The position numbers and the translations under genes are program-made. From positions 30,063 through 94,062 of IMG/VR virus record IMGVR_UViG_3300021164_001199: 64,000 nt of DNA. One strand, given 5' to 3'. Below, in pieces: positions 1,051-27,800 of this stretch (positions within the stretch are counted from its first letter, which is position 1; the number at the start of each line of letters is the position of its first letter). Source of the stretch: a virus. Lineage: Duplodnaviria > Caudoviricetes. The notes below the pieces were generated by a model. The model made no database searches and was not told where the DNA came from. It was given only the letters and a program-made list of their open reading frames with translations.

Positions 1051-1058
1051 ACAAATTG

Positions 1059-1108
1059 AATAAACTTTATAAGTTTAATAAACTTTATATATTTTTGTAT
1101 ATATTATA
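1059..1108 (+). promoter_or_regulatory. Putative phage promoter/operator: two copies of AATAAACTTTATA, an AAACTT-tat-AAGTTT palindrome and TTTTTGTATATATTATA
   Basis: Intergenic. 13-bp direct repeats at 1059-1071 and 1077-1089. Similar TGTATATT(A/G)TA motifs occur at 43204-43221 and 61613-61629. Confidence 0.45.
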
Positions 1109-1110
1109 AT

Positions 1111-3867: not shown

Positions 3868-3869
3868 TA

Positions 3870-9236: not shown

Positions 9237-12200
9237 TGGCTTGTCTTACACAAAAACAATTAGATAACATATTTAAATCAATTGGTAATTATTTTAAAAA
9301 TTTAAATGATCCAAAAGATTATAATCACTTAGAACATCTATTATATATTTATAATAAAGGTATATCTAGTGGAATGACACCAGCAACAGCTCTATCATAT
9401 GTGCAAGCTGTACCTAAACTAGTTCAAGCATATAAAGCTATAACTGGAATTAAATTAATTAAAGATGAAAATATTCAAGTAGCAAGACTTGAGTCTGATT
9501 TTGAAGATAATGATTTAAATTTTATTGCAGATACTTTAGAATTAACTAGTGAAAAAGAACCTGAAGAAATTACTGAAGTAACAACAGATGAGGTAGTTGC
9601 ACCTAAAGGTCAAACATTAAAAATATTTACTGCTAAGACAAATGATCCAACTTCTACTACTGGTCCTGATGAAAGAAAGGATGATGGTACTCAAAGTATA
9701 GATCCTAAGAAAACTTGGTACCACGGATTTACACGTAAACTTATTGCTAATGCTGTAAGTGGATTTGATGGTTCTACTATAACAATTAAAAATCATACTG
9801 GCTTTAAACTTAAAGCTATCAAAATGTCTGAGATTCCTTATGAGGAATTATATGATTTTCTAAAAACTCAAAGTTTATCTGAAGAGCAATTAAAAGCAAT
9901 ATTAGATAGAGACCAGATTGTAGCATTAGTAATTACTGATAATAATGGTAAAATATTAAAGTTTAATCAAGATTATGCAGTTGCACCTGATGGAAAGTTA
10001 ATATACTTTCAAATGAGAGATACTAACTATGATTTACTAGATGTTGTAGGAGCAAGAGGTGTAATTCAAAGTGTTGAAGAAATATCTAGTAATTTAAATA
10101 TATCTTATAAAGAAGCAGAAAGAAGAGTTAGAGAAGGTGTAAATAATTTAAGAGCAATCCAGAAAGGAGTATTTGAAAATAAAAATGTAATACTTGATAT
10201 TACTGGAGGCAGTCGTGGCTACTTACCTTTACTAGAAAAAAATATTAAACTGAATTATCAAACTGCTCCATCTACATTAGGTCAAGTAGTTGCTAATATG
10301 GATTACTTTGAAATTAGTTACAATACTACTGGTGGAACAACTAATAGATTTATTACTCTATATGGTAATACGATTAATTTATTTACACGTAAGGCAAATG
10401 ATGAAGAATTAAGTCTATTTAGTGATGCTGTTGTAGAAAACTTATTAAATTCTGATGATACTACTGTAGGTTTAGAATTCTTAAGTCAGTATTTAGCAAT
10501 GACTAATTCTAATAAGAATGAACTTAGAAAATTACTTGAAAGTATTAAAGAATCAAGAGATAAAGAAAATGGTGTAGATAGATTAAAAAAATATTTAAAA
10601 ACAGCAGGTTCTAATAAGAATGGTTTTTGGTTAACATACCAAAAAGAATTACCTGAATATTTTGGTATTAAGAATGGAGAACTTGCTATTATCAATAGAG
10701 AAGAGTATTATAATTTTTGGAAAGATGTTTTAAAAACAGCTTTACCATTAAATGATGATGATAAAGTACAATTGTTTAATTCATATTTAAATTTTGAAAT
10801 TGATAATAAAACTAAAGAAACTTTAGGATTAAGTAAATCTGAAGAACCTAAAATAGAAAAGAAAACTAGTGCTATTGTAGCAAATACAAATTTTGACATA
10901 GATTCTTTAATGAAAGAAAAAGGAATATCTTCTGAAGCTACAAAGAAACAAATTCAAGATGCTTTAGATTGGTATGAAAATAGTCCTTTAAAAAATGTAG
11001 TACCTGTTAATGTACTTTTTAATGTTTTAAATTCAAATTCAAAAGCTGTTTGGGAAAGATCAGGAATTACTTTATTTTTTGGTTCTAACTACACAGATTT
11101 ATATCATGAGGCTTGGCATGCTTTCTCTCAATTGTTTTTAACAATAGATGACAAACAAAAGTTATATGCTGAAATTGGAAAAATGTCTGGAACATTTGCT
11201 TTACCAGGTGGTGGTAGAATTAAATATTCAGATGCAAAACCAGTTCAAATAGAAGAGTTATTAGCTGAAGACTTTAGACAATATAGATTATCTAATGGTA
11301 CAAAAGTATTTGGGCAAAGACCAGTGACTAATAGAATCTTTTCTCAAATTTTAAAGTTATTAAATTGGTTATTTGATAAAGTTTCATATCAACAAACACA
11401 AACAGATTTTAATTCATTAAAGAATGTAAAAACATTATATGATAAATTATATCTAGGTAACTTCATAGATATGAAACCTGATGCTAAAAATATCATGTTT
11501 GGTTCATTAGCATCTCCTATAGGTTCAGTAGAAAATGGTACTCAATTAACTATTACTCAATCAAATGAAATAGCAGATACAATGGATGCTATTATATCTG
11601 ATGTATTAGAAAATATTGCAAAAGAAACTGGTAAAGTTATTATTGGTAACTTTTTAAATTCTAAGAATTCAATTAAATATGTTTATGGTAAAATAAAAGA
11701 AGCTTTTGAAAAAAGAGTAGTTGAATTAAGTGAAGATGTAGTAGCCAATGAGTATGCTATAAACTTATTAAATATTGCTATAACTGACTTTGGAAATATA
11801 GATGATACAATAGATAACAAGAAATTAAATGATAGCACAACTATATCGTATCACCTTAGAAGATCTAAGATATTAGATTTTAAAACTAAAACTTTAGATG
11901 ATAATGATGAAAAAACTGTTGACTTAGATACACATATTAAAAAAGAATTAGCTGATAATGGTGAACTATCTTTTGAAGAACTAGCAAATGAAAGAGTATT
12001 ATTTCTTATTAAAACATTAAAACAATATGATTCTAATGGTAATGTAGAAATGAATGACTTAGGCTTTCCTAAACTTGTTAAATTCAACAAAGTATTAGGA
12101 ATTCTAATTAGAGAACTTAATAATAACTCAGGGCCTAAATCTATTAAAGCTAAACTAGAAGCATTGAGAGATAATGGTCAACATGAAATTGGTGAACTAT

Positions 12201-15200
12201 TAATTAAACTAGGTGATTTAGATTTAGTAAAAGAAGATGATAAAGCAGATATCATGAATGCTTGGATCTTATTTGCTAATAGTTTTAATACAACATCACT
12301 ACCATTAATTATTACAAGATTAGAACAAACTACAAATAGAGATGAAAATACATTTGAATATTCTTTATATAACACTCAAGGTAAATTAGATTTATCAAAT
12401 ACTAAAAGAAAGTTTATTCAAGAGTTTTCTATAAATAGATTAAATAGATTCACTTCAGAATTTGAAGGATTAAAAGTTATTGATAAAAATAAACTAGAGA
12501 ACTTCAATATACAAGAATATAATAACTTACAATTTGGAGATCCTAAAAAATTCAATAAGGCTGTATTATTCTATAATGCTATTGGTATTCCAGTAGGTAA
12601 ATCTGAACAATACAAAGAATTACTAAGTAATAAAACTGTATTAGAAGGAGTAACTTATATCTATAACATGCTTATGGAATATAAGAGTAAAGGAAAGAAT
12701 AGTGACTTTATTCCAGATCATATAAACTATTTAACTAAATCAAAAGAAGGTAATCAGTCTAATGTAATTGATACAGTTATCCAAGCATATCTTAAAGTAG
12801 AAGATATAGTTAGTACATTTAGTTTACTAAATGCTGAAGGTAATAGGCAATATGAGAATGTTCTTAATAATACAATTACTATTACAAAGAATGGACTTAA
12901 TGATGTAAATACATTTCAGGAATTTTATAGTAAACCTGAGTTTGCACATTTTAATCCTGCAATAAATCCAATGGTTAGAAACTCTCAAGTATTAAAAAAA
13001 TTATTTGGAGAAGATTTAACTGGTAGAATAGATACCTTAAACTTAAGTAATTACTCTGGTATACAGTTAGATAAAGATGGTGTGAATATAAACTCAGTTT
13101 CTATTACAGAAACAGATACAGCTACAAAATTTTACATTGATTTATATTCTTATATCAATAATGGTTATGTGGAACTACCAAGACATGCTGATAAGAAAAT
13201 GGCATTAGCATATCATACTTCTAAAAATCCACATTTTATTACACCTACTTCATATTATCAAAGTCCTGAGTTATCAGATGACAAGTTTTTTAAAATCATG
13301 TTTGGTTATTTAAAAGCAGAGCATGAAAGAGTTCAGGATATTAGAAACAATACTATTAGTGATTTAGATTATTTTCCAGAGTTTAAAAATCAAGGAAAAG
13401 AGTTCTTGATATTCCATGACATCTTAACTCCTGAATTAAAAAATAAACTATATGATACTTCTATAGAAGAATTAGCTGCCTTAAATTCTGATACTCAATT
13501 ACATAAAGAAATTAAAGATAGAATAGTAGCATACTTATCAAATCTAACTTCTAAAAATAAAGTTGTATTTGATGAAATGAATTATTTAGATGCTGACTCA
13601 ATTAAAAAATTAATTAAACCAGGGTTTGTTAATCAAGGATTGAGTAATGACGAAAAAGCAAATAGACTAGTTAGAGCTTATAGTGCTAACTCATTCATAT
13701 CATTTGTAGAATCTACCATATTATTCTATGGTGACATAGCTGCATATAACTTATTAAAAGAAGAATTTCATAAACGTAATGCTTCTGCAGGTTCTACAGG
13801 TAGAACATTTATTAGTGATCCTGAATTTCTATATGCATATAAAAAACATTTTGGTAATAAGTATGCTAACAAACAAGGATATAAATCTTATGGTGTTGCA
13901 GATAATGGTGTTTTAAGAACAGCTGTATTTGATGATATACAAGTGCAAAATGATGATTTAATAAAAGAATATAAAATACTATTTGAAAAACAATATACTA
14001 AAGATTATACAGCATTTGGATTAACTGGTAAAGCTTTAACAGATAAAGTAGAAGCAGAAGTAAAAAAATCAATTGCTAAATATTTTGAAAAAGAAATTAA
14101 AGAAGGTGATGGTCAAGGTTGGTTAACTTTTGATGCTTATAGAATGCTGGCAAAGCTTTCTAATGAGTGGTCTCCAGCTCAAGAGGAACTATACAATAAA
14201 ATTGTAGAAGGTAAAGATATAGGTATAAATGAGATAGTTAAAAACTTTCCTCCTAGGAAATATCAATACTATGGTCCAATTGTAACAGAAAAGTATCATT
14301 TAAATGCTCTTCATAAGTTTTCATTAATGCCACTTATACCTAGTGTTATTAAGGATACAAATCTTGCACAGATACATGAAAGAATGATGAACAGTAATGT
14401 TCAATATGCTACATTTAAATCTGGTTCCAAAACTGCTACAAGAACATATGAAAATGGAAAATCTGATCAATTTTATACAGATTTATCAGTTAGAAAAGCA
14501 ATGCCTAAAGATGCTGCATTATTAATTAATGAGATCAATATTAAATATTTACGTAATCAAGTATCTATTAATGATGAATTCAAAGAAGAAGTAGTATTCT
14601 CTACTCAAATGAGAAAATTAATCATTAATGAGTTATTTGAAAAAGGTATTCCATTAAATGCTAATGTAGAAGAACTAGTAAAATCTTACTTAAGAAATAT
14701 TGAAAGATATATTGAATTTAATAAACAAGAGTTAAGAGATGAAATAGAACTTAAAAGTGATGGTAAGTTTAATGCAGAATCTTTAGCTAAGATTATTAAA
14801 ATTGAAATGTCTAGAAGAGATTTTCCTGAACACTTGCAAGATACTGTAACTAAAATTGAAAATGGAAATTTTGCTTATGACTTATCCTATGCATTAAATG
14901 CTGAAGACATTGAAAAGATTTTATTCTCAATTGTAAATAAAAGAATTGTAAGAAGAAAAGTAAATGGTGAACCATTAATTCAAGCTGCTGTATCTGGTTT
15001 TGAAAGTGAAAGACCTGACTTAACTAATGCTACTGAAGAAGACTTAGTTAAATATAGAGCTGATGAACTTAAATTCTATAGAGTAGATCCAGTAACTGGT
15101 AAAACATTACCAATGCAAGTTAAAATTGCATTACAAGGAAAGTTTAAAAAACTATTATATTTAGAACATAATGGTCAAGTAATTGGGACTAGAGATAATT

Positions 15201-18200
15201 TAAATAAAGCATTAAAAGATTCTGAATGGATGAAAGTACATGGTAAAATGGTTACCCTTGTGGGTGTACGTATTCCAGTTCAAGGATTTAATTCAATGGA
15301 AATGATGGAAGTTGCAGAATTCTTAGATGAATCTGCAGGTAACATTGTAGTTGCTCCAACACAGATTGTATCTAAATCAGGTGGTGACTTTGATATTGAT
15401 AAGTTATCTATATTCTTTCCTAATATTGAAAAAGTTGGTAATAAAATATTCTTATCAAGATATGATAGATCAATCAAAGAATCAACAGGTGAATTAAAAG
15501 GTAAAATTTCTGATTTAAAGAAAAGAATAAAAGAAATTAAAGGTGATTCACAAAAAGAATTTGAAAATCTTAAGAAACAAAAACAATTTAGTAAACTTGA
15601 AAATACTGAAAAACAGTTAATTAATCAATTGTATGAAAACTACAATAGACTACTTGCAGAGAACAATAATTTAATAGAACTTTGGTCAAAAGAATCTGCT
15701 AATACTAGAAAAGGTAAAATTTTATCTAATGAAATTGATGAACTAAAAAATATTTCTATTTCATTTGAAGATAAATTCCAAGAGTTAACTTTAGCAGAAG
15801 CTGAATTAAAACAAAATTTAAAAGTATACTATGGTGCCTTTTATGAAGATAAGCAACAAAAATTCTGGGATACTCAAGATGTAAAATTACAAGTTGTATT
15901 TGATGAAATGAATATCATTAAGGAGAAATTAATTAATTCTTCTAATAGTGCATATGAAAATGATATTACTCAAGACATTATAAATATTCTTTCAGCTCCT
16001 GAAATTGCTGCAGCATTAGTTAGACCTAATGATACTGACTTAGTACAGCCATTATCTAAAGACATGCTTAAGTATTTTGCTAAGTCATATAATCCAAAAG
16101 AAAATTTTAATACAGATCCTTCAATAATGGAATTTGTTGATGATCTAGAAACTAATCCTGAAAAGAAAAATAAAATAAGACCTGTATCACCTACTAGAAT
16201 ATTTGAAACAAGATATAATATTTATAAACAATACTCTAACTCAGTTGGTAAAAGAGCTTTAGGTATAGGTGCCGTAGATAATGCTTATAATGCACTATTC
16301 AATCAAGTTGGTTTGTACCTAAATGATGAATATGAACATGTCAGAACTGATAAAAAAACAGGTAAGGATATAACTCAAATAAGAAAGAATAGATTACTAT
16401 TAAGTCATAACAAAATGAATAATGGTAAAATATCTTTATCTAATATATTCAATACAGAAGGAACTAAAATATCTGATTTAATTAATCAGTTGATCAATGG
16501 TTGGGTAGATGTTGCTAAAGATCCTTGGATTGCTTATGTAATGGGTACTCCTGAAGCATCACCATCTTTATTATACTTAGTACAAGCTGGTGTACCATTT
16601 AAACAAGCTGTATACTTCCTAGCTAATCCATTAGTAAGACAATACTTTGATACTCTTAAGAAAATGGAAAGCCCATTAGCTGCTTTAAGTCAATCAATTG
16701 AGGAAAATGATTATGGTGATCCTATAATAAAATCTAAATTACCTGAAAATGAATTTAGACTTAAAGCTGAAATGTTAGGTTATGGTAAATCAGATTATCC
16801 AAATGGTCATCAGTTATATGATAGGATTCAAGACTATACAAAAGGATTTGAAAATATAACAGAAAAAGAACTATTTGATAGATTAGAGGCTAGTATACAA
16901 CCAGGTTGGTCACGTAATGAAACAGACATGGCTGTATTAGCGCACTTCATAGAAATACTTGATGTAGCAAAAGGACTATTTAAAATTAAATCATCTCTAA
17001 ACTTTGATACTAAGACATCTGCTACAATGTATGATGCTTATGCAAGAAGTCAAAAAAGAGATTTAATTGTTAGTGATAATGAAGATGAGGTAAATATTCT
17101 TAAGATATTTCCAAAGCATAAGTTAAAAGCATTATATGAAGATACTATTCTTCACAACTTTGATGTGAGTGACATGCAAATGGAAATGTTTAAAGATTTA
17201 TATGGTGTTAGAAATAATCCTAATTTAAATAAATATTTATACGAATTCTATAAGAATAGTTTAATATTTGGAAGTAATATATTTGATAGAGTAAAACAAA
17301 TTTTTGGTGGAAATGATAAAATGATTTCTGAATTCAAAAATGATTTTACTACAGCTATTACTTTATCTGCTCTAAGAGATATTGGTGTTACAGAAACTAT
17401 GTACAAAGGATATGAAGTTGTACAAGTTAATAGTAAAGAATATGAAAAAGTTATAAATAAAAAAGTAAATAAATCTTTACCTACTGATAAATTATATTTT
17501 GCTAAAAATAATTATACTAAAGATACTCCAGAGAAATATCCAAAGTATGGTTTTATTTTTACTGAGAATGCAGAAAAACTAGGTACTAATTATAATGTAT
17601 CAACAACTCAAGCAGTTATTAGAACTAATAAAAAAGGAGAAAGAAATCCTAATGCATTAGCTATTGTAACTAAGAAAATGCAGAAAGCTGGGGCTAACTT
17701 TACAAATTCTGAAGCAGATTTTAATCAGTTTAAAGAACTTAATACTAAGTTGATTAATGACATAGTTGATTCTAAGTTTGAAAGAATTATAGTTCCTACT
17801 GGTGGATTTGCAATGGAAAAAGCACAACTACCTACAAGGTTTGCAGAATGGTTACAGAATGAATTGCAAACTAAATTAGGTATTGCTACAGAATTAGTTG
17901 ATAGAGGAACTGGAATGAGTGGCTTAACTAACTCTAAAAAATATGAAGAACCTACTACTCAACAATCTACCAATCCACTAGTAGAAGCAGGAATTAAACC
18001 TACTGATATGTATGGTAATGCTGCTAAAGATATCCAGATGGCATCTGAATCTACTCAGTTTATTGGATTTGGTACTATAATGAAAGAAGGTAATGTATCT
18101 TCTACAGATAAATATGCTAAAGCTTGGGGTAACAAAGCTAATACTGGAGAATATACTGCTAATGATATAATTATGGTATCTGGTAGTGGTAACTTTGGTA

Positions 18201-21200
18201 GAGGTGGTGTGGATAAAACAGAAGAAGCAGCAGCAATTAAAAAAACATTATCTGAAAAATATAAACCTTTATTATTAAAAGCTATAGAAGCTGGTGCCTC
18301 TTTTAGAATTGGTAACCAATATGCTAAAGGTAATTTATCTGATGAAACTGTTGCTAAATTTTTACAACAAAAAGGATATACTGAAGAAAAACTTAATGGA
18401 TATTCTAGATGGAATGCTCCTGTTAAACCAAAGGGAGAAAAAGTTGCGGATGGTATATATGTAAATCAAGAAGGTTTATCACCACAAGAAGAACTTGAAT
18501 TATTTGAACTTATTAGACCAGTACTAGAAGAACAAGCTGTTAAAAGTAATGCAGGTAAGAATGCTCCAAAAATGGCAGGTCTAGGTCTTAACTGGGATTA
18601 TGTTAATGGAGTGACTAAAAGAAGAGATAATGGATTTGAAAAAATTGATATACAAGATCCTTTAAGAAAGAATAGTGCATATGGGTGGTTTACATCTTCA
18701 TCTACTGGTGAGAAATTAGGTTCTATATCTAAAAGAATGGTAGAGTTAATGAGTAAAGCTACTGGTATAGATGTTACTGATTATGATGGTTCTATTATAA
18801 ATATTTATAATTCAGATAGTTTTATTGGTAATCATCCTGATATTGATGAAAGTAAAACAGCAGAAAAATATCCTGTTGTTGTTGTTAATATAGGAGGTCC
18901 AGGAAATATTGTATTAGGTAGTGATAAGGTAAATTTAAAATCAGGAGCAGGTTATGTATTTGGTGTTGATGGTAAAAATAGAACCATATCTCATTCTACT
19001 TACGCATCACCTATTAAAGGTACATTACCAGCTATAACTACTGCTATGGATGGTGAAACATTAAAAGCTGGTTCTTATAGAGTTTCAATTACAATGAGAA
19101 GAGTCATGCCTTTAAAGAAAGGAATGCCTGAATCTCCAAAAGTTATTTCTAAAAAACCATCTACTAGTGCTAATGAATTTGATATAGCAGATAAATTAAC
19201 ACCTATAGAACAAAACTTTAAAGATGGTTCAGGTGGTAGACAAATGCAACCACAGTTTAAAGGTAAATCTACTATGGATCTTATTATGTCAGGAGATAGA
19301 ACTAGAACTACTAGAGCTAAGACTGATGTTGGAAGAATGTTGAAAGACTATAACCTTTCTAAAATTGAAGATCTTGTTGGTAAAATTATACGCATGACAG
19401 ATAATACAGGTAAACAAGTCTATACTAGAATTACTAAAGTTGCTCCATTTACACAAGAATATCAAGATTCTACATGGAAAAAAGAAGGCTGGGAAAAGTC
19501 TGTAACAGATAAACTTGTTGGACAGTATCCTTATGCTATAGAGTTTGAAGTAGTAAATAAACCTACTCAATCATCTACTAGTACTAATATTGGACCAGAA
19601 ACTATAATTAATGTATATTCTAAAGATAAAAATGGATTTGAAGATTTGAGCAATTTTGCTGAAAGATCTGTTAAGCTTGGTAATGAAACTTTTAGAACTC
19701 CTGAAGGTGCTTATCAAGCTATGAAAATTTGGTTTACAAATGCTGCTTTATTACGTACACCTATTAGTAAAGAAAATCTTGAAATATTAGAAAAATTAAA
19801 AACAGCTTCAGGTCTAGAAGCAAAAGCTTTAGGAAATAATATTACAGATTTATCTAAAGACACCTGGGATAGAGATTCATCAGGTGTAATGAAAAATATT
19901 TTAACACTTTCATTTCAACAAAATTCTAAAGCTTTAGATAAACTTCTTTCTACTGGTAATGCTACTCTAACTCATACTCAAGATAAAACTAAGTGGAAAA
20001 CTGAATTTCCTAAATTATTAATGGAAGTTAGAAATGAACTTAGAGGTGAACAACCTAAAGTTAATGAGCCAGTTGAAGTAGAACAAGTTCCCACTAAGGG
20101 AACTAATATACCAGGATATATTCCTACAGGAGTATTTATTCAAGATGATAAAATGTATGTTGATAAAGATACATTATATGAACAATTTGAAACTCAAGAA
20201 TATTCTACCAATAATACACAAGCATATGGAACTATTATAACAACTCCTGAAGGTGGTAAATTCTATTTACAAAAAGTAAGTCCAAGGACTTTCAATGATA
20301 ACTTTAGTGAGTATGTAAAGTTTGTAATGGAAAGAGAATATCAGAGAAGTGTATTAAAAGCTTCAGACATAACCAATTTTGATGAACTACTTAAAACAAC
20401 TACTGCTAAATTAATAACTCCTAAAAAAGTACAAATTAATATTGCTGAATTACAAAATAAACTTAAAACAGATGTGGCATTTGTAGGTAATAAATATGGA
20501 CTAGAAGATTTAGTAGACGTATATTCTGGTGAAGTGATTTATGATAATTTGAAGCCTGGCTTTAGAAAACCAGGAATTTATGAACAATATACAATAACTG
20601 AAGAAAGAGGGTCTGCTGTAAAATATAAAATAATTGAAAGTTATTTAACTAATAAAGCATTAAAGAATATTCTTAATTCTTATTCTTATATGCAGGATCC
20701 AGAGAATTCATATGCCAGACAATTATTAGATTTAGTAAAAAAATATAAGTTAGCAAAAGACTATAGTCTTCTTGATGCATTGACACTTAATAAGTCTAAT
20801 GGTAATGACATCTTTAATTTAGTATTTAAAGAAGGTAAACCTGATTCTAATACTATAGATAACTATATTGATGAATTAATGAGACTATCTAATCCTGATG
20901 TTGAAAAACATCCAGATATACATATTAATAAAGAGATTTCTGAATTCTTTGATAAATTTCAATATTATGTATTGTTATCTAGTGGATTTAGTTCAGGTAA
21001 CAAATATTCATTAAATTCTATTATATCTCAAGAAAAGATATTAAACTATACTAATTCAGATGCAATTAAAAAAGCAACTAATAGAATTTTAAATGATTCA
21101 GATTATTATGGTAAAGTTGAAAAAACTTTAAATATTTTTACTGATAAGTTTTTAAGACATAGGTTAGGTATTATTGTAAATCCAAGATCTAAAATAGTTA

Positions 21201-21799
21201 CTAATATTGCAGGATTTTCAATTGATAATTCTAATAGAATTAAAAAGTATATATCTCAAGGTATATCTAAACCTGTAACAGAATATCCTAATGTAGATAT
21301 TTTTGATGATACTCTGAAAAAAGTAAATGATTCATTATATTTAATTGATCTAGATTTAATAAGACAACAAGGAAATCAAGCTGCTTTATCTGGTGATAAA
21401 AAATATTTTACTAATGCAGTTTTAAAATTAGCTGAGACACATGATGATAAATTGTTTATTTTTACAGCAGCTGATCAAATTCCAGTAACTGTTAAAGCAA
21501 GTAATATATCAATCTTTAATACACCAGAACAAATTAGAAATGCTGAATTTGAAGGACCTATTATTTTATCAAGCAAAGGATTAAAAGGAAAAACTGATGT
21601 TGGAACTGCTATGTTATCTGAAGCACTATTTGAAAAATATAGAATTAAAAATCCTGGATTTCAAAAAGGAATTGCCAAACTTACTATTCGTGAAATGATG
21701 AATAGTGACTCTTTTATAACATCAATAGATGTAATTGATAGTATTAGATTAAAATCTCATGCTATATTAGACGAATTAAATAACTCTTGTAATATATAA
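9236..21799 (+). CDS. Virion-packaged two-barrel DNA-dependent RNA polymerase (crAss-like, phi14:2 gp66 type) with zincin and accessory domains
   Basis: RIPVQG...GGDFDIDK catalytic DxDxD (15386-15400). DGQGW motif. HEAWH...EELLAEDF zincin motif (from 11105). 4187 aa. Confidence 0.9.
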   Translation: MACLTQKQLDNIFKSIGNYFKNLNDPKDYNHLEHLLYIYNKGISSGMTPATALSYVQAVPKLVQAYKAITGIKLIKDENIQVARLESDFEDNDLNFIADTLELTSEKEPEEITEVTTDEVVAPKGQTLKIFTAKTNDPTSTTGPDERKDDGTQSIDPKKTWYHGFTRKLIANAVSGFDGSTITIKNHTGFKLKAIKMSEIPYEELYDFLKTQSLSEEQLKAILDRDQIVALVITDNNGKILKFNQDYAVAPDGKLIYFQMRDTNYDLLDVVGARGVIQSVEEISSNLNISYKEAERRVREGVNNLRAIQKGVFENKNVILDITGGSRGYLPLLEKNIKLNYQTAPSTLGQVVANMDYFEISYNTTGGTTNRFITLYGNTINLFTRKANDEELSLFSDAVVENLLNSDDTTVGLEFLSQYLAMTNSNKNELRKLLESIKESRDKENGVDRLKKYLKTAGSNKNGFWLTYQKELPEYFGIKNGELAIINREEYYNFWKDVLKTALPLNDDDKVQLFNSYLNFEIDNKTKETLGLSKSEEPKIEKKTSAIVANTNFDIDSLMKEKGISSEATKKQIQDALDWYENSPLKNVVPVNVLFNVLNSNSKAVWERSGITLFFGSNYTDLYHEAWHAFSQLFLTIDDKQKLYAEIGKMSGTFALPGGGRIKYSDAKPVQIEELLAEDFRQYRLSNGTKVFGQRPVTNRIFSQILKLLNWLFDKVSYQQTQTDFNSLKNVKTLYDKLYLGNFIDMKPDAKNIMFGSLASPIGSVENGTQLTITQSNEIADTMDAIISDVLENIAKETGKVIIGNFLNSKNSIKYVYGKIKEAFEKRVVELSEDVVANEYAINLLNIAITDFGNIDDTIDNKKLNDSTTISYHLRRSKILDFKTKTLDDNDEKTVDLDTHIKKELADNGELSFEELANERVLFLIKTLKQYDSNGNVEMNDLGFPKLVKFNKVLGILIRELNNNSGPKSIKAKLEALRDNGQHEIGELLIKLGDLDLVKEDDKADIMNAWILFANSFNTTSLPLIITRLEQTTNRDENTFEYSLYNTQGKLDLSNTKRKFIQEFSINRLNRFTSEFEGLKVIDKNKLENFNIQEYNNLQFGDPKKFNKAVLFYNAIGIPVGKSEQYKELLSNKTVLEGVTYIYNMLMEYKSKGKNSDFIPDHINYLTKSKEGNQSNVIDTVIQAYLKVEDIVSTFSLLNAEGNRQYENVLNNTITITKNGLNDVNTFQEFYSKPEFAHFNPAINPMVRNSQVLKKLFGEDLTGRIDTLNLSNYSGIQLDKDGVNINSVSITETDTATKFYIDLYSYINNGYVELPRHADKKMALAYHTSKNPHFITPTSYYQSPELSDDKFFKIMFGYLKAEHERVQDIRNNTISDLDYFPEFKNQGKEFLIFHDILTPELKNKLYDTSIEELAALNSDTQLHKEIKDRIVAYLSNLTSKNKVVFDEMNYLDADSIKKLIKPGFVNQGLSNDEKANRLVRAYSANSFISFVESTILFYGDIAAYNLLKEEFHKRNASAGSTGRTFISDPEFLYAYKKHFGNKYANKQGYKSYGVADNGVLRTAVFDDIQVQNDDLIKEYKILFEKQYTKDYTAFGLTGKALTDKVEAEVKKSIAKYFEKEIKEGDGQGWLTFDAYRMLAKLSNEWSPAQEELYNKIVEGKDIGINEIVKNFPPRKYQYYGPIVTEKYHLNALHKFSLMPLIPSVIKDTNLAQIHERMMNSNVQYATFKSGSKTATRTYENGKSDQFYTDLSVRKAMPKDAALLINEINIKYLRNQVSINDEFKEEVVFSTQMRKLIINELFEKGIPLNANVEELVKSYLRNIERYIEFNKQELRDEIELKSDGKFNAESLAKIIKIEMSRRDFPEHLQDTVTKIENGNFAYDLSYALNAEDIEKILFSIVNKRIVRRKVNGEPLIQAAVSGFESERPDLTNATEEDLVKYRADELKFYRVDPVTGKTLPMQVKIALQGKFKKLLYLEHNGQVIGTRDNLNKALKDSEWMKVHGKMVTLVGVRIPVQGFNSMEMMEVAEFLDESAGNIVVAPTQIVSKSGGDFDIDKLSIFFPNIEKVGNKIFLSRYDRSIKESTGELKGKISDLKKRIKEIKGDSQKEFENLKKQKQFSKLENTEKQLINQLYENYNRLLAENNNLIELWSKESANTRKGKILSNEIDELKNISISFEDKFQELTLAEAELKQNLKVYYGAFYEDKQQKFWDTQDVKLQVVFDEMNIIKEKLINSSNSAYENDITQDIINILSAPEIAAALVRPNDTDLVQPLSKDMLKYFAKSYNPKENFNTDPSIMEFVDDLETNPEKKNKIRPVSPTRIFETRYNIYKQYSNSVGKRALGIGAVDNAYNALFNQVGLYLNDEYEHVRTDKKTGKDITQIRKNRLLLSHNKMNNGKISLSNIFNTEGTKISDLINQLINGWVDVAKDPWIAYVMGTPEASPSLLYLVQAGVPFKQAVYFLANPLVRQYFDTLKKMESPLAALSQSIEENDYGDPIIKSKLPENEFRLKAEMLGYGKSDYPNGHQLYDRIQDYTKGFENITEKELFDRLEASIQPGWSRNETDMAVLAHFIEILDVAKGLFKIKSSLNFDTKTSATMYDAYARSQKRDLIVSDNEDEVNILKIFPKHKLKALYEDTILHNFDVSDMQMEMFKDLYGVRNNPNLNKYLYEFYKNSLIFGSNIFDRVKQIFGGNDKMISEFKNDFTTAITLSALRDIGVTETMYKGYEVVQVNSKEYEKVINKKVNKSLPTDKLYFAKNNYTKDTPEKYPKYGFIFTENAEKLGTNYNVSTTQAVIRTNKKGERNPNALAIVTKKMQKAGANFTNSEADFNQFKELNTKLINDIVDSKFERIIVPTGGFAMEKAQLPTRFAEWLQNELQTKLGIATELVDRGTGMSGLTNSKKYEEPTTQQSTNPLVEAGIKPTDMYGNAAKDIQMASESTQFIGFGTIMKEGNVSSTDKYAKAWGNKANTGEYTANDIIMVSGSGNFGRGGVDKTEEAAAIKKTLSEKYKPLLLKAIEAGASFRIGNQYAKGNLSDETVAKFLQQKGYTEEKLNGYSRWNAPVKPKGEKVADGIYVNQEGLSPQEELELFELIRPVLEEQAVKSNAGKNAPKMAGLGLNWDYVNGVTKRRDNGFEKIDIQDPLRKNSAYGWFTSSSTGEKLGSISKRMVELMSKATGIDVTDYDGSIINIYNSDSFIGNHPDIDESKTAEKYPVVVVNIGGPGNIVLGSDKVNLKSGAGYVFGVDGKNRTISHSTYASPIKGTLPAITTAMDGETLKAGSYRVSITMRRVMPLKKGMPESPKVISKKPSTSANEFDIADKLTPIEQNFKDGSGGRQMQPQFKGKSTMDLIMSGDRTRTTRAKTDVGRMLKDYNLSKIEDLVGKIIRMTDNTGKQVYTRITKVAPFTQEYQDSTWKKEGWEKSVTDKLVGQYPYAIEFEVVNKPTQSSTSTNIGPETIINVYSKDKNGFEDLSNFAERSVKLGNETFRTPEGAYQAMKIWFTNAALLRTPISKENLEILEKLKTASGLEAKALGNNITDLSKDTWDRDSSGVMKNILTLSFQQNSKALDKLLSTGNATLTHTQDKTKWKTEFPKLLMEVRNELRGEQPKVNEPVEVEQVPTKGTNIPGYIPTGVFIQDDKMYVDKDTLYEQFETQEYSTNNTQAYGTIITTPEGGKFYLQKVSPRTFNDNFSEYVKFVMEREYQRSVLKASDITNFDELLKTTTAKLITPKKVQINIAELQNKLKTDVAFVGNKYGLEDLVDVYSGEVIYDNLKPGFRKPGIYEQYTITEERGSAVKYKIIESYLTNKALKNILNSYSYMQDPENSYARQLLDLVKKYKLAKDYSLLDALTLNKSNGNDIFNLVFKEGKPDSNTIDNYIDELMRLSNPDVEKHPDIHINKEISEFFDKFQYYVLLSSGFSSGNKYSLNSIISQEKILNYTNSDAIKKATNRILNDSDYYGKVEKTLNIFTDKFLRHRLGIIVNPRSKIVTNIAGFSIDNSNRIKKYISQGISKPVTEYPNVDIFDDTLKKVNDSLYLIDLDLIRQQGNQAALSGDKKYFTNAVLKLAETHDDKLFIFTAADQIPVTVKASNISIFNTPEQIRNAEFEGPIILSSKGLKGKTDVGTAMLSEALFEKYRIKNPGFQKGIAKLTIREMMNSDSFITSIDVIDSIRLKSHAILDELNNSCNI
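18430..19110 (+). other. AlkB-like 2OG-Fe(II) dioxygenase domain inside the vRNAP ORF
   Basis: IINIY...IGNHPD (HxD, 18833-18841)...VVVVNIG...H...YRVSITMRR matches the AlkB-family layout. Boundaries are approximate. Confidence 0.8.
19190..19555 (+). other. ASCH/PUA-like domain inside the vRNAP ORF
   Basis: MDLIMSGDRTRTTR (GxKT/RxTxR)...TRITKV...KEGW...AIEFEVV. Boundaries are approximate. Confidence 0.75.
19600..20047 (+). other. NADAR (YbiA-like) domain inside the vRNAP ORF
   Basis: LSNF...FRTPEGAYQAMK...AKALG...WD...M...SFQQN...LLSTGNATL...LMEVRNEL. Boundaries are approximate. Confidence 0.85.
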
Positions 21800-21801
21800 T
21801 T

Positions 21802-24800
21802 ATGGCTTGCAAAATAATTAGAAATGAAGATGGTACTGTAGATAGAGTACTTGCTGATAATAATGAACGTTCAATTCTCTATAATCAAATTAGAGAAACA
21901 ACAACTGAAGAACAAGCCTTATTAGATTATTCTGGAACGTTTACAGAAGAGTTTAAAAATGTAATTGAATCATTTAAAAACTCAGAAGATAGTACTAACA
22001 TATATGATGAGAATGGAGAAGTCCAGTATTACATATATGATTATATTATGCATCCTGAAAAGTTCTTTGGTCAAAATAATGTAGTTAATACTAAATTTCA
22101 AAAAGATAGAAATAATAATTTAAGAATTGCTGGATTATCTTATTTAGTAGGCACTTTAGAAATGCTTTCTGTGAAATTTGGATTATCTTATGAAGTTATT
22201 TTTGATGAAAGTAATCCTAACAAAGGATATATAGATGTAATATCTTATGGTAAACCCACTATTATAATAAATGCTTCTAAAGCTTCACATGACACTCCTT
22301 TACATGAGTATGGTCATATTTTTATAAATCTTATTAAATTATCCAATAAAAACTTATATTCAAATTTAGTAAAAGAAATATTAAATACAGAAATAGGTAA
22401 AAAAGAATTATCCGATGTTAAAAATTATTATTCAAATTATACTTTAGAAGAACAAATTGAAGAAACAATAGTTGAACTATTAGGCAGATATGCTAGAAAT
22501 GAGTTTGATCCTGAATCAGGTATACATAAAACAATTAAAAAAATATGGAATACTATATTAGAATTTTTATCTAAGACATTCAATGTTGAAATTAAAGATA
22601 TTTCTCCAAACATGTCAATTGAACAACTTTCTAAACTTTTAAGTAATCCTAATGTAAACTTTAATCAAAAATCTTTCATAGAACAAAATTTAGAAACTAT
22701 TAAGAATACTAACATTAAAAATAAAGAAAGATTAGAAAATGAATATACCGATTTTAAAAAGATTAATAATCCATCATTAATAAGAGAAAATGGTTATACG
22801 TTAATTATAAACAAAAATGAGTTTGATATATTTAAAAAGGAAATAGAAACTACCATCAATAGTATAAAAGAATATAGTAAAAGTCAACTATTAATAGATA
22901 TTAATAATATTAAATCTGAAATTACAACTTTTCAAGAAAGAAACAATTTTGATTACAGTAGATATCCTATGTTTACTAAAATTTTAAAATTTTTTCATCC
23001 AACTCCAAACACTGCATTATATGTATTAGATAGAGAAATACAAAATGGAAATTTAGATAATGAAATTAAAGATAATTTAAAATTTTTAGATAAATCACTA
23101 ACTGAAATAACACAAGATGTATTATCTGGATATATGATAAGTGATCAATTAGGAATAAAAATTCCAGATTTTTATAAAATGTCATCTTATACATTTAGCA
23201 GTTTTAATTCTGTTGAAGAAATTGAAAATAGTTTTATAGATAAACTTTCTGAATTGAATAAAATAATTCAAAATCCTGAAAAATCTGACTCTTATTATGA
23301 TCGTAGTTTTAAATTTTCAACAGAAACTGATACATATAAAGTATATGGAAAATTTAAAGATGGAAATATAAGTATTAGTTTTAGTTCTGATAAGTATGGA
23401 ATGAAAGATGTGAATAATAGTCTTTTTTTCAAAATTCTTCCTAAAGTTATAGATTCAATTTCTTATATGTTTTCAGATTTAGAATATAACACTATATCAT
23501 TTACTCCCGTTTCTGGAGAATCATCTAAAGGTAGAGATTTAAGGCTTAAAGGATATAATATTTTTGCTAAAAGACTTTTTGGACAATTTAGTTTAGTAGC
23601 AGAAAATGATAATACTACTATTATTCCTATTCCTGAAATGTTTAAAAATCAAATACATATAAAAGAAAATATGTATCAGAAAGACAGGACTGATATACCT
23701 GTTATACAATCAGCCCAGTTTAATCAAATACAAAATGATACTAATGAAAATATTGCAGTTGAAGTATTAAATAAAATTGCAAATAGAATATCTAAAAATC
23801 TAAATGGGGTGCCTTATAATAGTATTGAAGAAGCTGATGCTGTATCTTTGTTAGCTTCTACTAAAGAGAAATATACTGGTCAACCAGCATTCTTTTATAA
23901 TGGTCAAGTATACTTTATAAAAGATAAATTAAACTTAGAAAACTTATTCCATGAATTTAGTCACCCTTTCATTAAGGCTATTAAGAAAACAAACCCTGGT
24001 CTTTTTAATAAATTATATGACAATCTTATTCAAACAGAAGAAGGTCAAAAACTTAAAGATCTAGTTAAAGAATATTATAACCATGATGAAAATTCTGAAG
24101 AGTTTAAAGAAGAAATGCTAGTAAGAGCATTAACTACTAGAGCTAGAAATAATGAATTAAAAGTTCAAGAGAGTTCTGGTTTTGATAAGTTAATGAATCA
24201 ATTGTGGTATGCTGTTAAACAAATAATACGTAAGATATTTGGTAAGGTTAAAATAGACAAGTTAAATGAGAATACAACTCTAGATGAACTTGTAAAAATG
24301 CTTAATAATGAATCTTTTGAAATTAGTGCAAAAGATATTACAGATTCAGAAAGAGCAGATTTTAATAATCTAAAAAAAGAGTCAGTTAAAGAACTAATAT
24401 CTAAAGCTAATGCTACATTAGTTCAAAGTAATATTGACAAATTATTTAAATTAATAAGGTCTGGTCAACAAGTTTTAGAACAAGGTGAAACAAACTATCC
24501 TGGCTTAGAAGAAAGTATTTCAAAAGAAAAATTAGATAGTCCTTTTCAAGAAGAATACAATGCAATATCTAGATATCAAACATATACTAAAACTAATGAA
24601 GAACCTTTAGATTTAGTAAACTATAGAGAAAAACAAATTGAAGGTTTAGTTTTATCTATAGAAGCTTATAATGACTCTATTGAAAAAATAATTCTTGAAA
24701 TTAATAGATTAAAATCAGATCCCAATTCAATTGTAACTATTTCTAAAAATATGTATTTCTTGAAAATACTTAAACAAACTTTACAAACGTTTGTGGAATT

Positions 24801-27800
24801 AAGACAAGAAATGACAGATGCAGGAGTTAATGTAGCTAGTCCCATATTTCAATTACTAACTAAAGCAACTATTAATGCTGAATCTGGTATTAGAATAATA
24901 TATGAAGAAAATAAGAAAGCATTACCTTTAGTATTAGCACCACATTTAAAAGGAATCAATGAAGTACTTATTAAAGAATTTAATAAAGTAATTGAGGAAA
25001 TGGTTGCTAGAGGTTCATCTCGTGAAGCAATTGCTGCTAAGGAAAGAGAAAGAGATAGTTATCTTAGAGATGAGAATACATTAGCTAAAGTAATGGTTGG
25101 TGAAACACCAGAGCCAGCAGGATTAGGTTTAAGTACTTTAGTTGAAAGTGCTGTATCTAGTCCAGATGAATTAATATCAAGTTTTGCGTTATATGTTAAG
25201 GAAGCTTTAATTGATGTAGAACTTAATGCTACTGCAAACTTTAATGATTTCTTAGCTGATACTAGAAAACTTTTAAAAGACGCAGGATTAGATGATTTTA
25301 AATTAGTATCCAAACTTGGTAAGATTATTACTTTTAAAGAAGAACTAGGATATACTGACCCTAAAACAGGAGAATTCAAAACTCATGAAGTTCATACATT
25401 TTTAAATAAATTTAAAGGATATGAATTAGTATTATCTAAATTTAAATATGATATAAATAAAGCATTAGAGAATGGTGATTCAGAATTAGCGGCATCTCTT
25501 GAAATGGACCGTGAGGAATGGAAAAGAACATATATGCATGATAAATGGAAACCTGAAGTTTATAAAATATATGATGTCTTCAAAAAAACTTATGTTAACT
25601 CTGCAGGAGTTACTGTTGAAATTGGCAAAATGGCCAAAGAAAGATATAATAAAATAATGGATAATATCAATAATGGTATTAAACTCATTGATGATGAATT
25701 AGAGAGAGTTGAAATTCAGAATAGAATGAAAATTGATACTCTATGGGTAGATTATAAAAAATTATTTAGTAAATATGATGATGATGGTCTTCTCAAAACA
25801 GGAGATGAAATGGCTATTACAGAAACATTACTAGAATATAGAGCTCAAAGAAAGGAATATTTTGAATGGGAGTCAGATGAAAGTCCTGATAGTATGCCTA
25901 TTCTTAGATTTAAGAAAGCTAGAAGTTTATTTATAGATCAACTATTAACTAAGTTTGAGAGATCTGATCTAGAATTTGCTCAGAAGTTACAAGAGTGGGA
26001 TGATATGAATACTAGAAAGGTTATTGATAAACAATTCTATGTAGATAAAGCCTTAATACTTGAAAAAATAAATGAAATATATAATAGTTTATCAGGTTCT
26101 TTTGCAGAAGATTCTAAAATTGTAAAAGAAACTAAAGAGTATTGGGATTTAATTATTAATCAACTGTATGCTTACAGAGATGAGGAAAATCATCCTAATG
26201 GACTTTTAGTTTCTAAAGAAAAAATAGCTGAGATTAAAAAAGCTCAAGAAAAAATCCAGGAACTACAAGACATGATTAAAAATGGAAATGGTTTATCTAG
26301 AGCAGAAACAAGAGAATATAGAAGATTAGATGAATTAGTAAAACGTGGAATTGAGTTATCTGCAAAAGACTATTCTGACTATGAAAATTTAGAAATTAGA
26401 TCTAATTTTTCTTCAATACCAAAAGGAGTTAAAAGTGATTTAAAGAAATTATATGCTGATCTTGAAAATTTACAAAGTAAAAAAGCTACTGATTATTATT
26501 TAGAAGTTTATAATTATCAGATTGACTTACATAATCGTAGACAAGAAGCAAAAGGATTACCTGTTACAGTGAAACATTTTGATAGATTTGCTATTGATTA
26601 TGATGCATTAGATAGAGGGTTTGTAGAGAGTGTATTTAAAAAAGATCCAGAGTTTAAAAAATGGTTCATGGCTAATCACGTTGAAGTAGAAAGATGGGAT
26701 GATGAACTTCAAATGAGAGTAATAAGATTTGAAAGATTATTCTTATGGAATCAAATTGAACCTAGAGACTCTAAATATAAAAAAAGAGTTCAATGGAGAG
26801 ATGAAACAGGTAGAGATATATTTGTATGGGGATTACCTTCTTTATCATATTACAAACAAAATATTAAACCAGAATATGCTACTGAAGAAATTGTAGGAGA
26901 AACTGTAGATAATAGAGGTAACTATTTGCCAAGAGAAAATGTAGTTAATAGTCCTTATATTAATCAAGCATATTTTGATTTAAAAAGAGATAATATAGGT
27001 GCATTTAACTTACTTGAAAAAATTAAAGAGTATCATATTAAGTTTCAAGAAAAAGCTGATAAATCTGATAGATTATGGATGCAAGTTCCTAGATATGAAA
27101 AGACTAGTAAAGAACTTACAGAAACTAATAAGTTTTTTTCTGATAAAACTTCAACTGCTAAAGCTGCACTTAAGAATTTTTTAAATAAATTTAAAGTAAA
27201 TGCTGAAGATACTGATGAAGGTTTAGGTGTTGAAGATAAATTTAAACTTACAAGATTAGACTTCTTTAATGATGATGAACAAAAAATTCATATATCAGGT
27301 AAACCATTAATAGATGAAGATCAAGTATCATTAGATGTAATTACATCTGTGCTTAGACATATGCATTCAGTTGAGAGAGCTCATAAATTAGCTGAGATTG
27401 AACCAATTGCAAAAGCATTAATGGAATTAATGAATGATCCTAAAAATCAACCTAAAGATATTACTAAAGCTAGTATGTATCATTGGATTACTCAAAAGAT
27501 ACCAATATTTGCTAATAAAAAAGGTGAGAATATTAGAGCTAAGGCAATTAAAGGATTAATAGACAGAACTTTCTATAATGTTCAGCAAACAGGATTTGGT
27601 TCTGATGCTATAGTTCTACAGAAATTATCTAAAGTAATGATGAAAGCTGCATCTTTTGGATTCTTTGCCTTAGATATACCTTCAGCTGTTAAAAATAGAT
27701 TTGGTCAACAGTTACAACAAGCTATTGAATTAGCTGCTGGAACAAGTTATGATGGAAAGAGTTTCCTAAAAGGGAAAATTATTGCATCTAAAGCTATGTT

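Follow-up and report, generated by a model that had tools for sequence, protein, structure and literature searches.

[quoted passage not shown]

The window, a stretch of 64,000 nucleotides (positions 30,063 to 94,062) of the viral record IMGVR_UViG_3300021164_001199, contains a giant ORF whose features are collected in Table 1. By tblastn, its core (aa 1589-2721) matches g066 of Cellulophaga phage phi14:2, annotated as "Catalytic RNA polymerase subunit" (E 5e-16), as well as the "putative RNAP catalytic subunit" of crAss002, and it also has matches in cr108_1 and others. The DFDID motif lies in the context GGDFDIDK (aa 2049-2056), and D[FYM]D.DK or a close variant was present in all 52 aligned rows (D.D.DA in one row). 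Given that the core matches phi14:2 g066 and that the DFDID motif is present in all relatives, the ORF is, as judged from its sequence, a homologue of the crAss-like virion RNA polymerase (vRNAP). The HEAWH motif, zincin-like by motif alone, is embedded in a YHExxH.F[ST]Q context in 23 of 26 aligned rows, and no Pfam family matched this region. Pfam assigned no domain to either end of the vRNAP (N- or C-terminal) or to the three neighbouring giant ORFs, and in a PHROGs search the NADAR part alone was matched, to families of unknown function. The C-terminal region is 54-70% conserved in three relatives (L003, L004 and L005) and about 30% in a fourth (L024). Over the whole chain, Cys occurs at positions 3 and 4185 only, and the cassette modules are Cys-free.

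Table 1. Position of the vRNAP homologue and its features in the window
Feature	Residues (aa)	Position (nt)	Strand	Basis or remark
Giant ORF, crAss-like vRNAP homologue with cassette	4187 aa	9236..21799	+	ORF list
HEAWH (HExxH, zincin-like motif)	624-628	11105..11119	+	motif position
DFDID catalytic motif of two-barrel RNAP	2051-2055	15386..15400	+	corresponds to 1361-DFDID-1365 of gp66
M1, DUF7831 domain	2750-2895	17483..17920	+	Pfam, Foldseek, ESM Atlas
Linker 1 (Pro/Thr/Gln/Ser-rich) and conserved M2 lead-in peptide		17921..18007	+	pLDDT <50, model residues 144-167; linker motif aa 2908
M2, unnamed Rossmann-like alpha/beta domain	2925-3062	18008..18421	+	
M3, AlkB-type Fe(II)/2-oxoglutarate dioxygenase	3063-3298	18422..19129	+	H3200, D3202, H3253, R3282, R3288
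Left copy of 20-nt direct repeat, linker-coding (Pro-Ser-Thr-Ser)		19155..19174	+	repeat search; junction alignment with L003
M4, ASCH-like (PUA-like beta-barrel) domain	3312-3445	19169..19570	+	
Right copy of 20-nt direct repeat		19569..19588	+	90% identical; 414 nt from left copy
M5, NADAR domain of phage gp30.3 type	3453-3606	19592..20053	+	Pfam, YbiA match
vRNAP C-terminal region	3607-4187	20054..21796	+	conserved in relatives

A preliminary description of the window had placed five modules in frame after the polymerase core, at 17500-20050 (aa 2755-3605). Five linker-separated modules were indeed found there, at aa 2750-3606, and the motifs quoted for them are in frame and in place (FIFTENA at aa 2773, TQAVIR at 2791, IIVPTGG at 2851, KDIQMA at 2931, FIGFG at 2942, IMVSGSG at 2979 and HPDID at 3200). 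The resulting cassette of 857 aa is internal and not terminal, with 581 aa of vRNAP coming after it. In two relatives (L007 and L015), the first part of the vRNAP C-terminal region comes directly after the core, and the cassette is therefore an insertion. The AlphaFold models have well-folded blocks with stretches of pLDDT below 50 between them (aa 2888-2911, 3291-3311 and 3445-3450), and each module occurs without the others in relatives; both findings support the view of five separate folded units, joined by flexible linkers of Pro, Thr, Gln and Ser.

The two modules assigned earlier to AlkB and NADAR kept these assignments. M3 has a double-stranded beta-helix fold nearest to AlkB proteins, and the catalytic residues of the proposed HxD..H..R signature are intact: its metal triad (H3200, D3202 and H3253) is invariant across divergent copies, and the 2OG-binding R3282-x5-R3288 (RVSITMR) is present, its first Arg being Thr in L011. 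The HxD loop is of low pLDDT (model residues 136-146). Against the Pfam model 2OG-FeII_Oxy_2, M3 scored 26.3 bits, below the cut-off of 31.2, and three homologues scored above it (L056, 55.6; L009, 31.6; L011, 31.5). No AlkB module of the M3 type was found in 50,697 GenBank phage records. For M5, the assignment stands on Pfam (PF08719, 45 bits, cut-off 35.1), on its similarity to YbiA (PDB 2b3w, E 6.6e-7) and on conserved active-site residues, with LSN, E38, K45, W92, L-T-H and W135 invariant in eight members of the family. There is also a weak match to Pfam Phage_30_3. In the last strand, the position that tells NADAR types apart is a His, although the alignment of Thr/His with the YbiA Glu is ambiguous by one residue; a His here marks NADARs of the phage gp30.3 type, for which hydrolysis of guanine-ADPr in vitro is on record (PMC11125620; PMC11543638).

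For the remaining three modules, the earlier assignments had to be revised in part. M1, taken with low confidence as Macro-like, bears only a weak Macro resemblance and is instead a DUF7831 domain by Pfam (PF25176, 27.2 bits, cut-off 27, E 3.8e-6) and by predicted fold. Foldseek aligned it with DUF7831 proteins of BFVD at E 6.6e-6 to 3e-4 and rmsd 2.4-3.7 A (best 2.4 A), and an ESM Atlas cluster, 91% DUF7831, matched over 127 aa with a TM of 0.83 (by the match) and an rmsd of 2.2 A. The M1 profile had no significant match among PDB sequences, and a literature search for DUF7831 found no paper. M2 was described as an alpha/beta domain, possibly SLOG-like, of which the alpha/beta (Rossmann-like) part holds. 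SLOG is not supported, with no Pfam match and hhalign probabilities of 0.1% against the cpYpsA segment of L011 and 0.3% against replacement module X of L003. Searches with M2 gave nothing below E 0.5 among PDB sequences, and no usable match in the ESM Atlas feature search. Its family comprises 487 sequence clusters, mostly within giant proteins. M2 co-occurs with NADAR, AlkB, DUF4326, SLOG (cpYpsA), DUF7831, RNase H and LPD3, and in one case (P0083) is fused to DUF4326. DUF7831 is elsewhere fused to DUF4326 and to YAcAr/SLOG (ESM Atlas clusters). These fusion partners make ADP-ribose or nucleotide derivatives the probable targets of DUF7831 and M2.

In the case of M4, called ASCH before, the PUA-like beta-barrel does superpose on an ASCH protein, but the Pfam ASCH model (PF04266) is blind to it: no match at E <= 10 was obtained, nor did the ASCH HMM match in any of the six frames of the whole 94-kb record, while control genomes do match. 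The M4 profile found nothing significant among PDB sequences, hhalign against YqfB gave a non-significant probability of 7.5%, and the ESM Atlas feature search returned a weak lead (0.78). When compared with the E. coli amidohydrolase YqfB, M4 has a further conserved peptide at its N terminus and a helical insertion. YqfB works with a Thr-Lys-Glu triad and an Arg oxyanion hole. The equivalent of Thr24 is Thr or Ser in the M4 family, that of Glu74 lies in an invariant EGW, and that of Arg26 is Arg in most members and Gly in L070 and L071. The base Lys21, required by YqfB (K21A is inactive; PMC6972931), is replaced by an invariant Arg.

Alignment of the vRNAP relatives, which the preliminary description had proposed as a check for an insertion hotspot, revealed a genuine hotspot of variation in this interval. 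The modules recur in about 60 related viral contigs, where their order and position differ; they may precede or follow the core, and they always stay in frame within the vRNAP ORF. The cassettes of relatives additionally hold an SF1 helicase and a cpYpsA SLOG domain; that of L011 combines AlkB, cpYpsA and NADAR, and one M2-bearing relative has Pfam LPD3, a "large polyvalent protein-associated domain". Between relatives, the modules resemble one another much more closely than the polymerase cores do, also at third codon positions, where identity reaches 77.5% for M2 against L007 (core 51%), 82% for M4 against L031 (core 43%) and 99.4% for M5 against L003 (core 77.7%). M4 is bracketed by the two copies of a 20-nt direct repeat, and the closest relative (L003) has an M4-less junction with one copy. 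The linker motif is found at three module borders only across the 4187 aa, and among the relatives 25 of 41 linker-motif clusters are no more than 25 aa away from a module border, in zones that together cover about 4% of ORF length. The blastn matches of M2 in other phages start at 17945-17994, inside linker 1 and the lead-in segment. The varied orders, the excess of third-codon identity, the M4 repeat with its empty site and the linker motifs at borders together show, at the level of the aligned genes, that the modules are a shared pool exchanged in frame within the vRNAP gene between divergent phage lineages, and that they are gained and lost via recombination in short repeated linker-coding DNA.

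The gp66 protein of phi14:2 is translocated with the DNA and transcribes the early genes, and virions of PhicrAss001 contain gp47, gp49 and gp50 by mass spectrometry (PMC10172136). By analogy with these polymerase proteins, the whole vRNAP chain would be packed in the capsid and ejected with the DNA, and the cassette enzymes would therefore be in the cell ahead of any phage gene expression. Acting on the phage template or on the first transcripts, they would take off chemical groups. Judging from their families, M5 may remove ADP-ribose from guanine, M3 may demethylate single-stranded DNA or RNA (e.g., at 1mA and 3mC), and M4 may read or hydrolyse N4- or N6-modified bases. The variable cassette content would then mirror an arms race with hosts whose defences modify nucleic acids, and the swapping of modules suggests a customisable kit for first-minute repair or counter-defence. 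We assign a probability of roughly 55% to this reading as a whole, namely a vRNAP-borne cassette of five modules that is exchanged among phages, injected, and strips modifications against host defence; the earlier interpretation, a de-modification kit tethered to the transcribing enzyme, is partly supported. We know of no established host defence that methylates phage nucleic acid and could provide an AlkB target, which counts against a role in counter-defence. So does the T4 gp30.3 NADAR, which gave no protection against DarT1 in vivo (PMC11125620).

Extending this reading, we tentatively suggest that environmental crAss-like phages share a common pool of Cys-free modules, bracketed by short conserved linker DNA and shuffled in frame into and out of the vRNAP gene, through which a protein injected ahead of gene expression would be diversified in the manner of polymorphic toxins. 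The pool would include at least two undescribed enzyme families, M2 and the ASCH-like family with Arg for the catalytic Lys, both directed at host defences that put chemical marks on phage nucleic acids or use nucleotide derivatives as signals.

It is rather unlikely that the cassette serves a housekeeping function, repairing alkylation or adducts gathered outside the cell or at ejection so that first transcription proceeds. Such repair would parallel the AlkB domains of RNA-virus replicase polyproteins; however, fast exchange and presence/absence variation among close relatives typify conflict genes, and NADAR and its fusion partners sit in networks tied to ADP-ribose-based conflict. We consider it improbable, too, that the substrates of NADAR, DUF7831 and M2 are small molecules derived from ADP-ribose or NAD (e.g., immune second messengers or toxic by-products) instead of modified DNA, their early delivery blunting abortive-infection signalling. 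Phage NADAR, Macro, SLOG and DUF4326 domains have been proposed to process mostly low-molecular-weight ADP-ribose derivatives, and the view of Iyer et al. that such derivatives are the main targets of phage NADAR and Macro domains counts against a reading based on modified DNA (PMC9503650). The above-mentioned fusions of DUF7831 and M2, the occurrence of M2 with cpYpsA and NADAR, and the L011 combination would also fit such interception. On the other hand, AlkB and the ASCH-like domain belong to families directed at nucleic acids, and all NADAR types tested hydrolyse guanine-ADPr on DNA in vitro (PMC11125620). Finally, the modules could be cut off before packaging or be inert spacers or packing material of a cargo protein, for which the conserved HExxH, which could mean that the vRNAP chain gets cut up, the possibly proteolysis-dependent activation of gp66 and two ENA contigs with M2 or M4 called as short separate ORFs after the core ORF (behind masked bases) might speak, but this is very improbable considering that neither AlkB nor NADAR varies in its catalytic residues between divergent copies, that the modules are in frame in about 60 loci, and that their lack of Cys within a near-Cys-free vRNAP points to adaptation to the cargo context.

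Counter-defence proteins are usually viewed as early gene products, whereas enzymes on an injected polymerase would act earlier and at the template. The cassette points to ADP-ribosylation, methylation and N4-acylation as testable candidates for the attacks that the DNA or RNA of crAss-like phages meets in the first minute of infection, and it brings two domain families without annotation into the search for anti-defence functions. In addition, the rebuilding of giant phage cargo proteins can be followed at nucleotide resolution, as in-frame module exchange at repeated linker DNA.

The cassette belongs to the known "polyvalent protein" theme of phages (Iyer, Burroughs, Anand, de Souza and Aravind 2017, PMC5512222), with which it shares a giant phage protein, disparate enzymatic domains and the zincin-like HExxH motif. 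Polyvalent proteins are predicted to be packed in the virion, injected with the DNA and to act at once on several targets (PMC5512222); here, an RNAP is joined to AlkB, NADAR, ASCH-like, DUF7831 and M2 modules in architectures that vary over about 60 loci. The text of that study does not contain NADAR, AlkB, ASCH or crAss-like polymerases, whereas the carrier here is a two-barrel vRNAP. Its payload would consist of erasers (de-modification enzymes), in contrast to writers such as ARTs and methylases, and, unlike in PMC5512222, exchange at repeated linker DNA is recorded at the nucleotide level. Polymorphic toxins (PMC3482391) likewise recombine variable enzymatic cassettes onto a constant carrier, but they swap the C-terminal tip, while exchange in the vRNAP is internal, in frame and at linker repeats. 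With E. coli AlkB and the AlkB domains of RNA viruses, M3 shares the double-stranded beta-helix, HxD...H and RxxxxxR. In plant RNA viruses the AlkB domain lies within the polypeptide bearing the viral polymerase, as M3 does in the vRNAP. The RNA-virus domain is translated from the incoming genome, whereas M3, in a dsDNA phage, would arrive as protein.

M5 has the fold signature and the conserved Glu and Lys of NADARs, together with the His typical of phage NADARs (T4 gp30.3 type). Those phage proteins, and the orphan NADARs resembling antitoxins that neutralise DarTG1 (PMC11125620, PMC11257639, PMC11543638), are free-standing and made after infection, whereas M5 is part of a predicted virion polymerase. 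As in the viral SLOG-Macro-NADAR-DUF4326 fusions (Iyer et al. 2022, PMC9503650), NADAR, cpYpsA SLOG, DUF4326 and SF1 helicase are found in the relatives, yet the window's own cassette is without SLOG or DUF4326. With gp66 (2180 aa) and PhicrAss001 gp47, gp49 and gp50, the vRNAP shares a homologous DFDID core and a block of giant genes beside structural genes. Its length is about double that of gp66, and presence in the virion, known for those proteins, is predicted for it. A literature search found no accessory enzyme domains of this kind described for gp66 or the PhicrAss001 polymerases, and no paper on AlkB, NADAR or ASCH on crAss-like polymerases. In GenBank, a 2402-aa "DUF1768 domain-containing protein" of the human gut phage cr126_1 contains the DFDID core and is a NADAR-polymerase fusion, so far unremarked.

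The polymerase gene lies on a linear record of 94,062 bp with an estimated completeness of 79%, as a member of a series of giant ORFs that all run in the same direction (see table). The middle part of the 4187-aa virion RNA polymerase homologue (vRNAP) matches g066 (gp66), the catalytic virion RNA polymerase of Cellulophaga phage phi14:2 (E 5e-16), as well as polymerase-bearing giant proteins in many Crassvirales. Its DFDID motif, the counterpart of gp66 1361-DFDID-1365, is kept in all relatives aligned, and a YHEAWH (HExxH) motif is kept in most of them; no Pfam model matches the region around the latter. At E <= 0.01, Pfam likewise gives nothing for the neighbouring giant ORFs. Between the polymerase core and the C-terminal region lies a cassette of five linker-separated modules (M1 to M5), and the motif strings quoted for it in the preliminary description were all found in frame in the vRNAP ORF.

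Features of the vRNAP gene, its cassette and the related loci (nt, positions in the window or in the named locus or record; aa, positions in vRNAP)
Feature	Position	Remarks
vRNAP ORF	nt 9236-21799 (+)	single ORF, 4187 aa
Neighbouring giant ORFs	nt 1-9233, 21802-28956	349+, 918, 1788 and 2385 aa
HExxH motif	aa 623-628	YHEAWH
Polymerase core match	aa 1589-2721	phi14:2 g066
DFDID motif	aa 2051-2055	
M1	aa 2750-2895	DUF7831
M2	aa 2925-3062	
Conserved peptide ahead of M2	nt 17996-18010	also in homologues
M3	aa 3063-3298	AlkB fold
M4	aa 3312-3445	ASCH-like
M5	aa 3453-3606	NADAR
Direct repeat, 20 nt	nt 19155-19174 and 19569-19588	either side of M4; copies 90% identical
L002 (MT774391.1, uncultured phage cr126_1)	5509-12717	2402-aa protein; GenBank label only 'DUF1768 domain-containing protein'
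L003		closest relative, core 60-84% aa identity; M1, unrelated 188-aa module, M3, M5; without M2 and M4
188-aa module	L003:10487-11050	in the place of M2
L005		close relative; M1-M2 only
L024		close relative; M1 and another unknown module
167-aa module	L024:8433-8933	in the place of M2
L007, L045, L048, L057		more distant; modules upstream of core
L009		more distant; M3-like, M5-like, then M2
L031		more distant; M4 then M3
L056		more distant; M4, M3, M5, then SF1 helicase
L011		more distant; AlkB, cpYpsA SLOG, NADAR
DUF7831 copies with in-frame stops	L028:8001-8501, L029:8001-8492	
M2 and M4 listed by gene callers as short separate ORFs	L073:6001-6591, L074:6001-6495	M2 196 aa, M4 164 aa; upstream bases masked, so possibly split or fused

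The cassette was modelled with AlphaFold as aa 2745-3065 (mean pLDDT 79) and aa 3063-3450 (mean pLDDT 75). Both models form compact blocks, between which the pLDDT falls below 50 (aa 2888-2911, 3291-3311 and 3445-3450). The assignments of M5 and M3 made in the preliminary description held. M5 is a NADAR domain, with 45 bits against a Pfam cut-off of 35.1 and a match to YbiA (E 6.6e-7). The conserved Glu, Lys and Trp are retained in it along with an invariant Leu-Thr-His, where the His at the distinguishing position is the mark of phage NADARs of the T4 gp30.3 type. M3, described as AlkB-like with an HxD..H..R pattern, shows the fold of AlkB (E. coli AlkB is matched by Foldseek at E 7.7e-9); by itself it scores 26.3 bits, below the Pfam cut-off of 31.2, which the homologous modules of relatives exceed with up to 55.6 bits. 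Across five homologues its metal residues H3200, D3202 and H3253 do not vary, nor does the R3288-R3289 pair; in one of the relatives (L011) the RVSITMR motif has Thr in place of R3282. The HxD loop lies in a low-confidence part of the model. For M4 the proposed ASCH identity stands in part, based on one structural match and a motif alignment: the model superposes on YqfB, an ASCH-domain N4-acetylcytidine amidohydrolase, and GDRTxTTR aligns to YqfB GRKTITIR, but the Pfam ASCH model does not detect it. Of the YqfB residues known to be essential (Lys21, Thr24 and Arg26; PMC6972931), the first is replaced by an invariant Arg, the second corresponds to Thr or Ser, and the third to Arg in most members and Gly in L070 and L071; Glu74 corresponds to the invariant Glu of EGW.

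Structure searches with M1 and M2 make weak tests because both come from one joint model. M1 reaches 27.2 bits against the cut-off of 27 for Pfam DUF7831, and its part of the joint model resembles predicted DUF7831 proteins from giant viruses and phages (Foldseek E 6.6e-6, rmsd 2.4 A) and an ESM Atlas DUF7831 cluster (TM 0.83 by the match). M2 matches no Pfam model at E <= 10; its profile, run against 1.84 billion representatives, recovered 487 clusters at E <= 1e-3, mostly at variable positions within proteins of 1000-6000 aa, with a few proteins of 116-160 aa. Ten shorter matches (116-259 aa) similarly have no Pfam family across the M2 region. The conserved peptide NPL..AG.KP.DM.GNAAKDIQMA, in which the Met is invariant, always precedes M2; it could belong to the fold or serve as a processing site or internal start.

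When IMG/VR was scanned with the cassette and with profiles of M1 and M4, about 70 loci were recovered, some being duplicates of one virus, with module borders in the relatives taken from tblastn. In all of them the modules share the reading frame with the polymerase core, while the cassette content varies. Since the C-terminal region directly follows the core in L007 and L015, the cassette is an insertion, and the differing content, order and side of the core bear out the variable insertion hotspot that the preliminary description had proposed to look for among vRNAP relatives. The 188-aa and 167-aa modules that close relatives carry instead of M2 have no Pfam match and are candidates for further unannotated cassette domains. 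The cassettes of L009, L006, L056 and L011 bring in a cpYpsA SLOG domain, placed between AlkB and NADAR, and an SF1 (RecD/Pif1-like) helicase that includes UvrD_C_2. The stops inside two DUF7831 copies could reflect decay or a reassignment of stop codons of the kind that occurs in some crAss-like phages.

Modules are swapped by recombination between polymerase genes. They are much more alike than the cores, third codon positions included: identity at these positions is 77.5% for M2 against 51% for the core (compared with L007), 82% against 43% for M4 (L031) and 99.4% against 77.7% for M5 (L003), which points to recent exchange and not to mere constraint. The break-points are located in the linkers, and L003, which lacks M4, has exactly one copy of the repeat at that junction. 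Within vRNAP, the linker motif Q[PSQ]ST / PST[SNT] / TQ[PSQ]S occurs only at the M1/M2, M3/M4 and M4/M5 borders; of 41 motif clusters in the relatives, 25 are found no more than 25 aa from a module border (zones making up about 4% of ORF length), and the motif is present at only 27 of 146 borders. The GC content of the cassette (0.30-0.33) is slightly higher than that of its flanks (0.22-0.29).

Among 50,697 GenBank phage records, M3 has no match, M2 a marginal partial one and M4 a single one (pig-gut phage cr272_1), and M1 and M5 match gut crAss-like phages. The cr126_1 protein combines an N-terminal NADAR with the vRNAP mid and core regions, including FDFDIDK, so a NADAR-polymerase fusion exists in a human-gut crAss-like phage. 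Other domains in 58 M2-bearing proteins include SF1 helicase, cpYpsA SLOG, DUF7831, RNase H, NADAR, DUF4326, AlkB, PD-(D/E)XK nuclease, DSPc phosphatase and the polyvalent-protein domain LPD3, and ESM Atlas DUF7831 clusters show fusions with DUF4326 and with YAcAr/SLOG. Injected polyvalent proteins are an established general concept (PMC5512222); that text does not mention NADAR, AlkB, ASCH or crAss-like polymerases. The papers on crAss-like phages consulted here describe "large multidomain proteins" without NADAR, AlkB or ASCH-type enzymes, and our literature search found no paper connecting these enzymes with crAss-like polymerases. The cassette varies this known theme and brings with it two unannotated domain families as well as a documented way of exchanging modules.

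The data establish what the domains are, that AlkB and NADAR have intact catalytic residues, that the fusion to the polymerase is in frame and that modules are exchanged by recombination; the most economical reading of the cassette is a de-modification kit that would act on the template and the first transcripts. The homologue gp66 enters the cell by translocation and transcribes early genes. In PhicrAss001 the polymerase proteins are virion cargo, and partial unfolding is needed for their ejection (PMC10172136). If vRNAP behaves like these homologues, five small, independently refolding domains would enter with the polymerase before phage gene expression. The AlkB module may then act against methyl lesions of single-stranded nucleic acid, and the ASCH-like module may read or hydrolyse bases modified at N4 or N6. 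Going by the domains to which they are fused, DUF7831 and M2 may take part in the chemistry of ADP-ribose or nucleotides. The NADAR module would counter base ADP-ribosylation; gp30.3-type NADARs hydrolyse guanine-ADP-ribose in vitro, but T4 gp30.3 did not rescue cells from DarT1 (PMC11543638, PMC11125620). That cassette content changes so fast is consistent with an arms race. A rival view, the one favoured for phage NADARs in PMC9503650, is that the cassette intercepts small ADP-ribose-derived signals. Another would have it perform housekeeping repair of damaged virion DNA. The remaining alternative to entry with the polymerase is that processing removes the cassette.

In three consecutive giant ORFs (nt 3870-28959), Cys is nearly confined to the ORF ends: the 1788-aa protein has a single Cys, 5 residues before its C-terminal end, vRNAP has Cys at positions 3 and 4185 only, and the 2385-aa protein that follows has a single one at position 3. 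This pattern in the sequence suggests an end-to-end thiol linkage of cargo proteins. ORF-terminal fragments of the relatives likewise finish in a Cys-containing tail in the alignments, and the short M2 and M4 ORFs that gene callers place directly after the polymerase core ORF in L073 and L074 each carry a terminal Cys tail.
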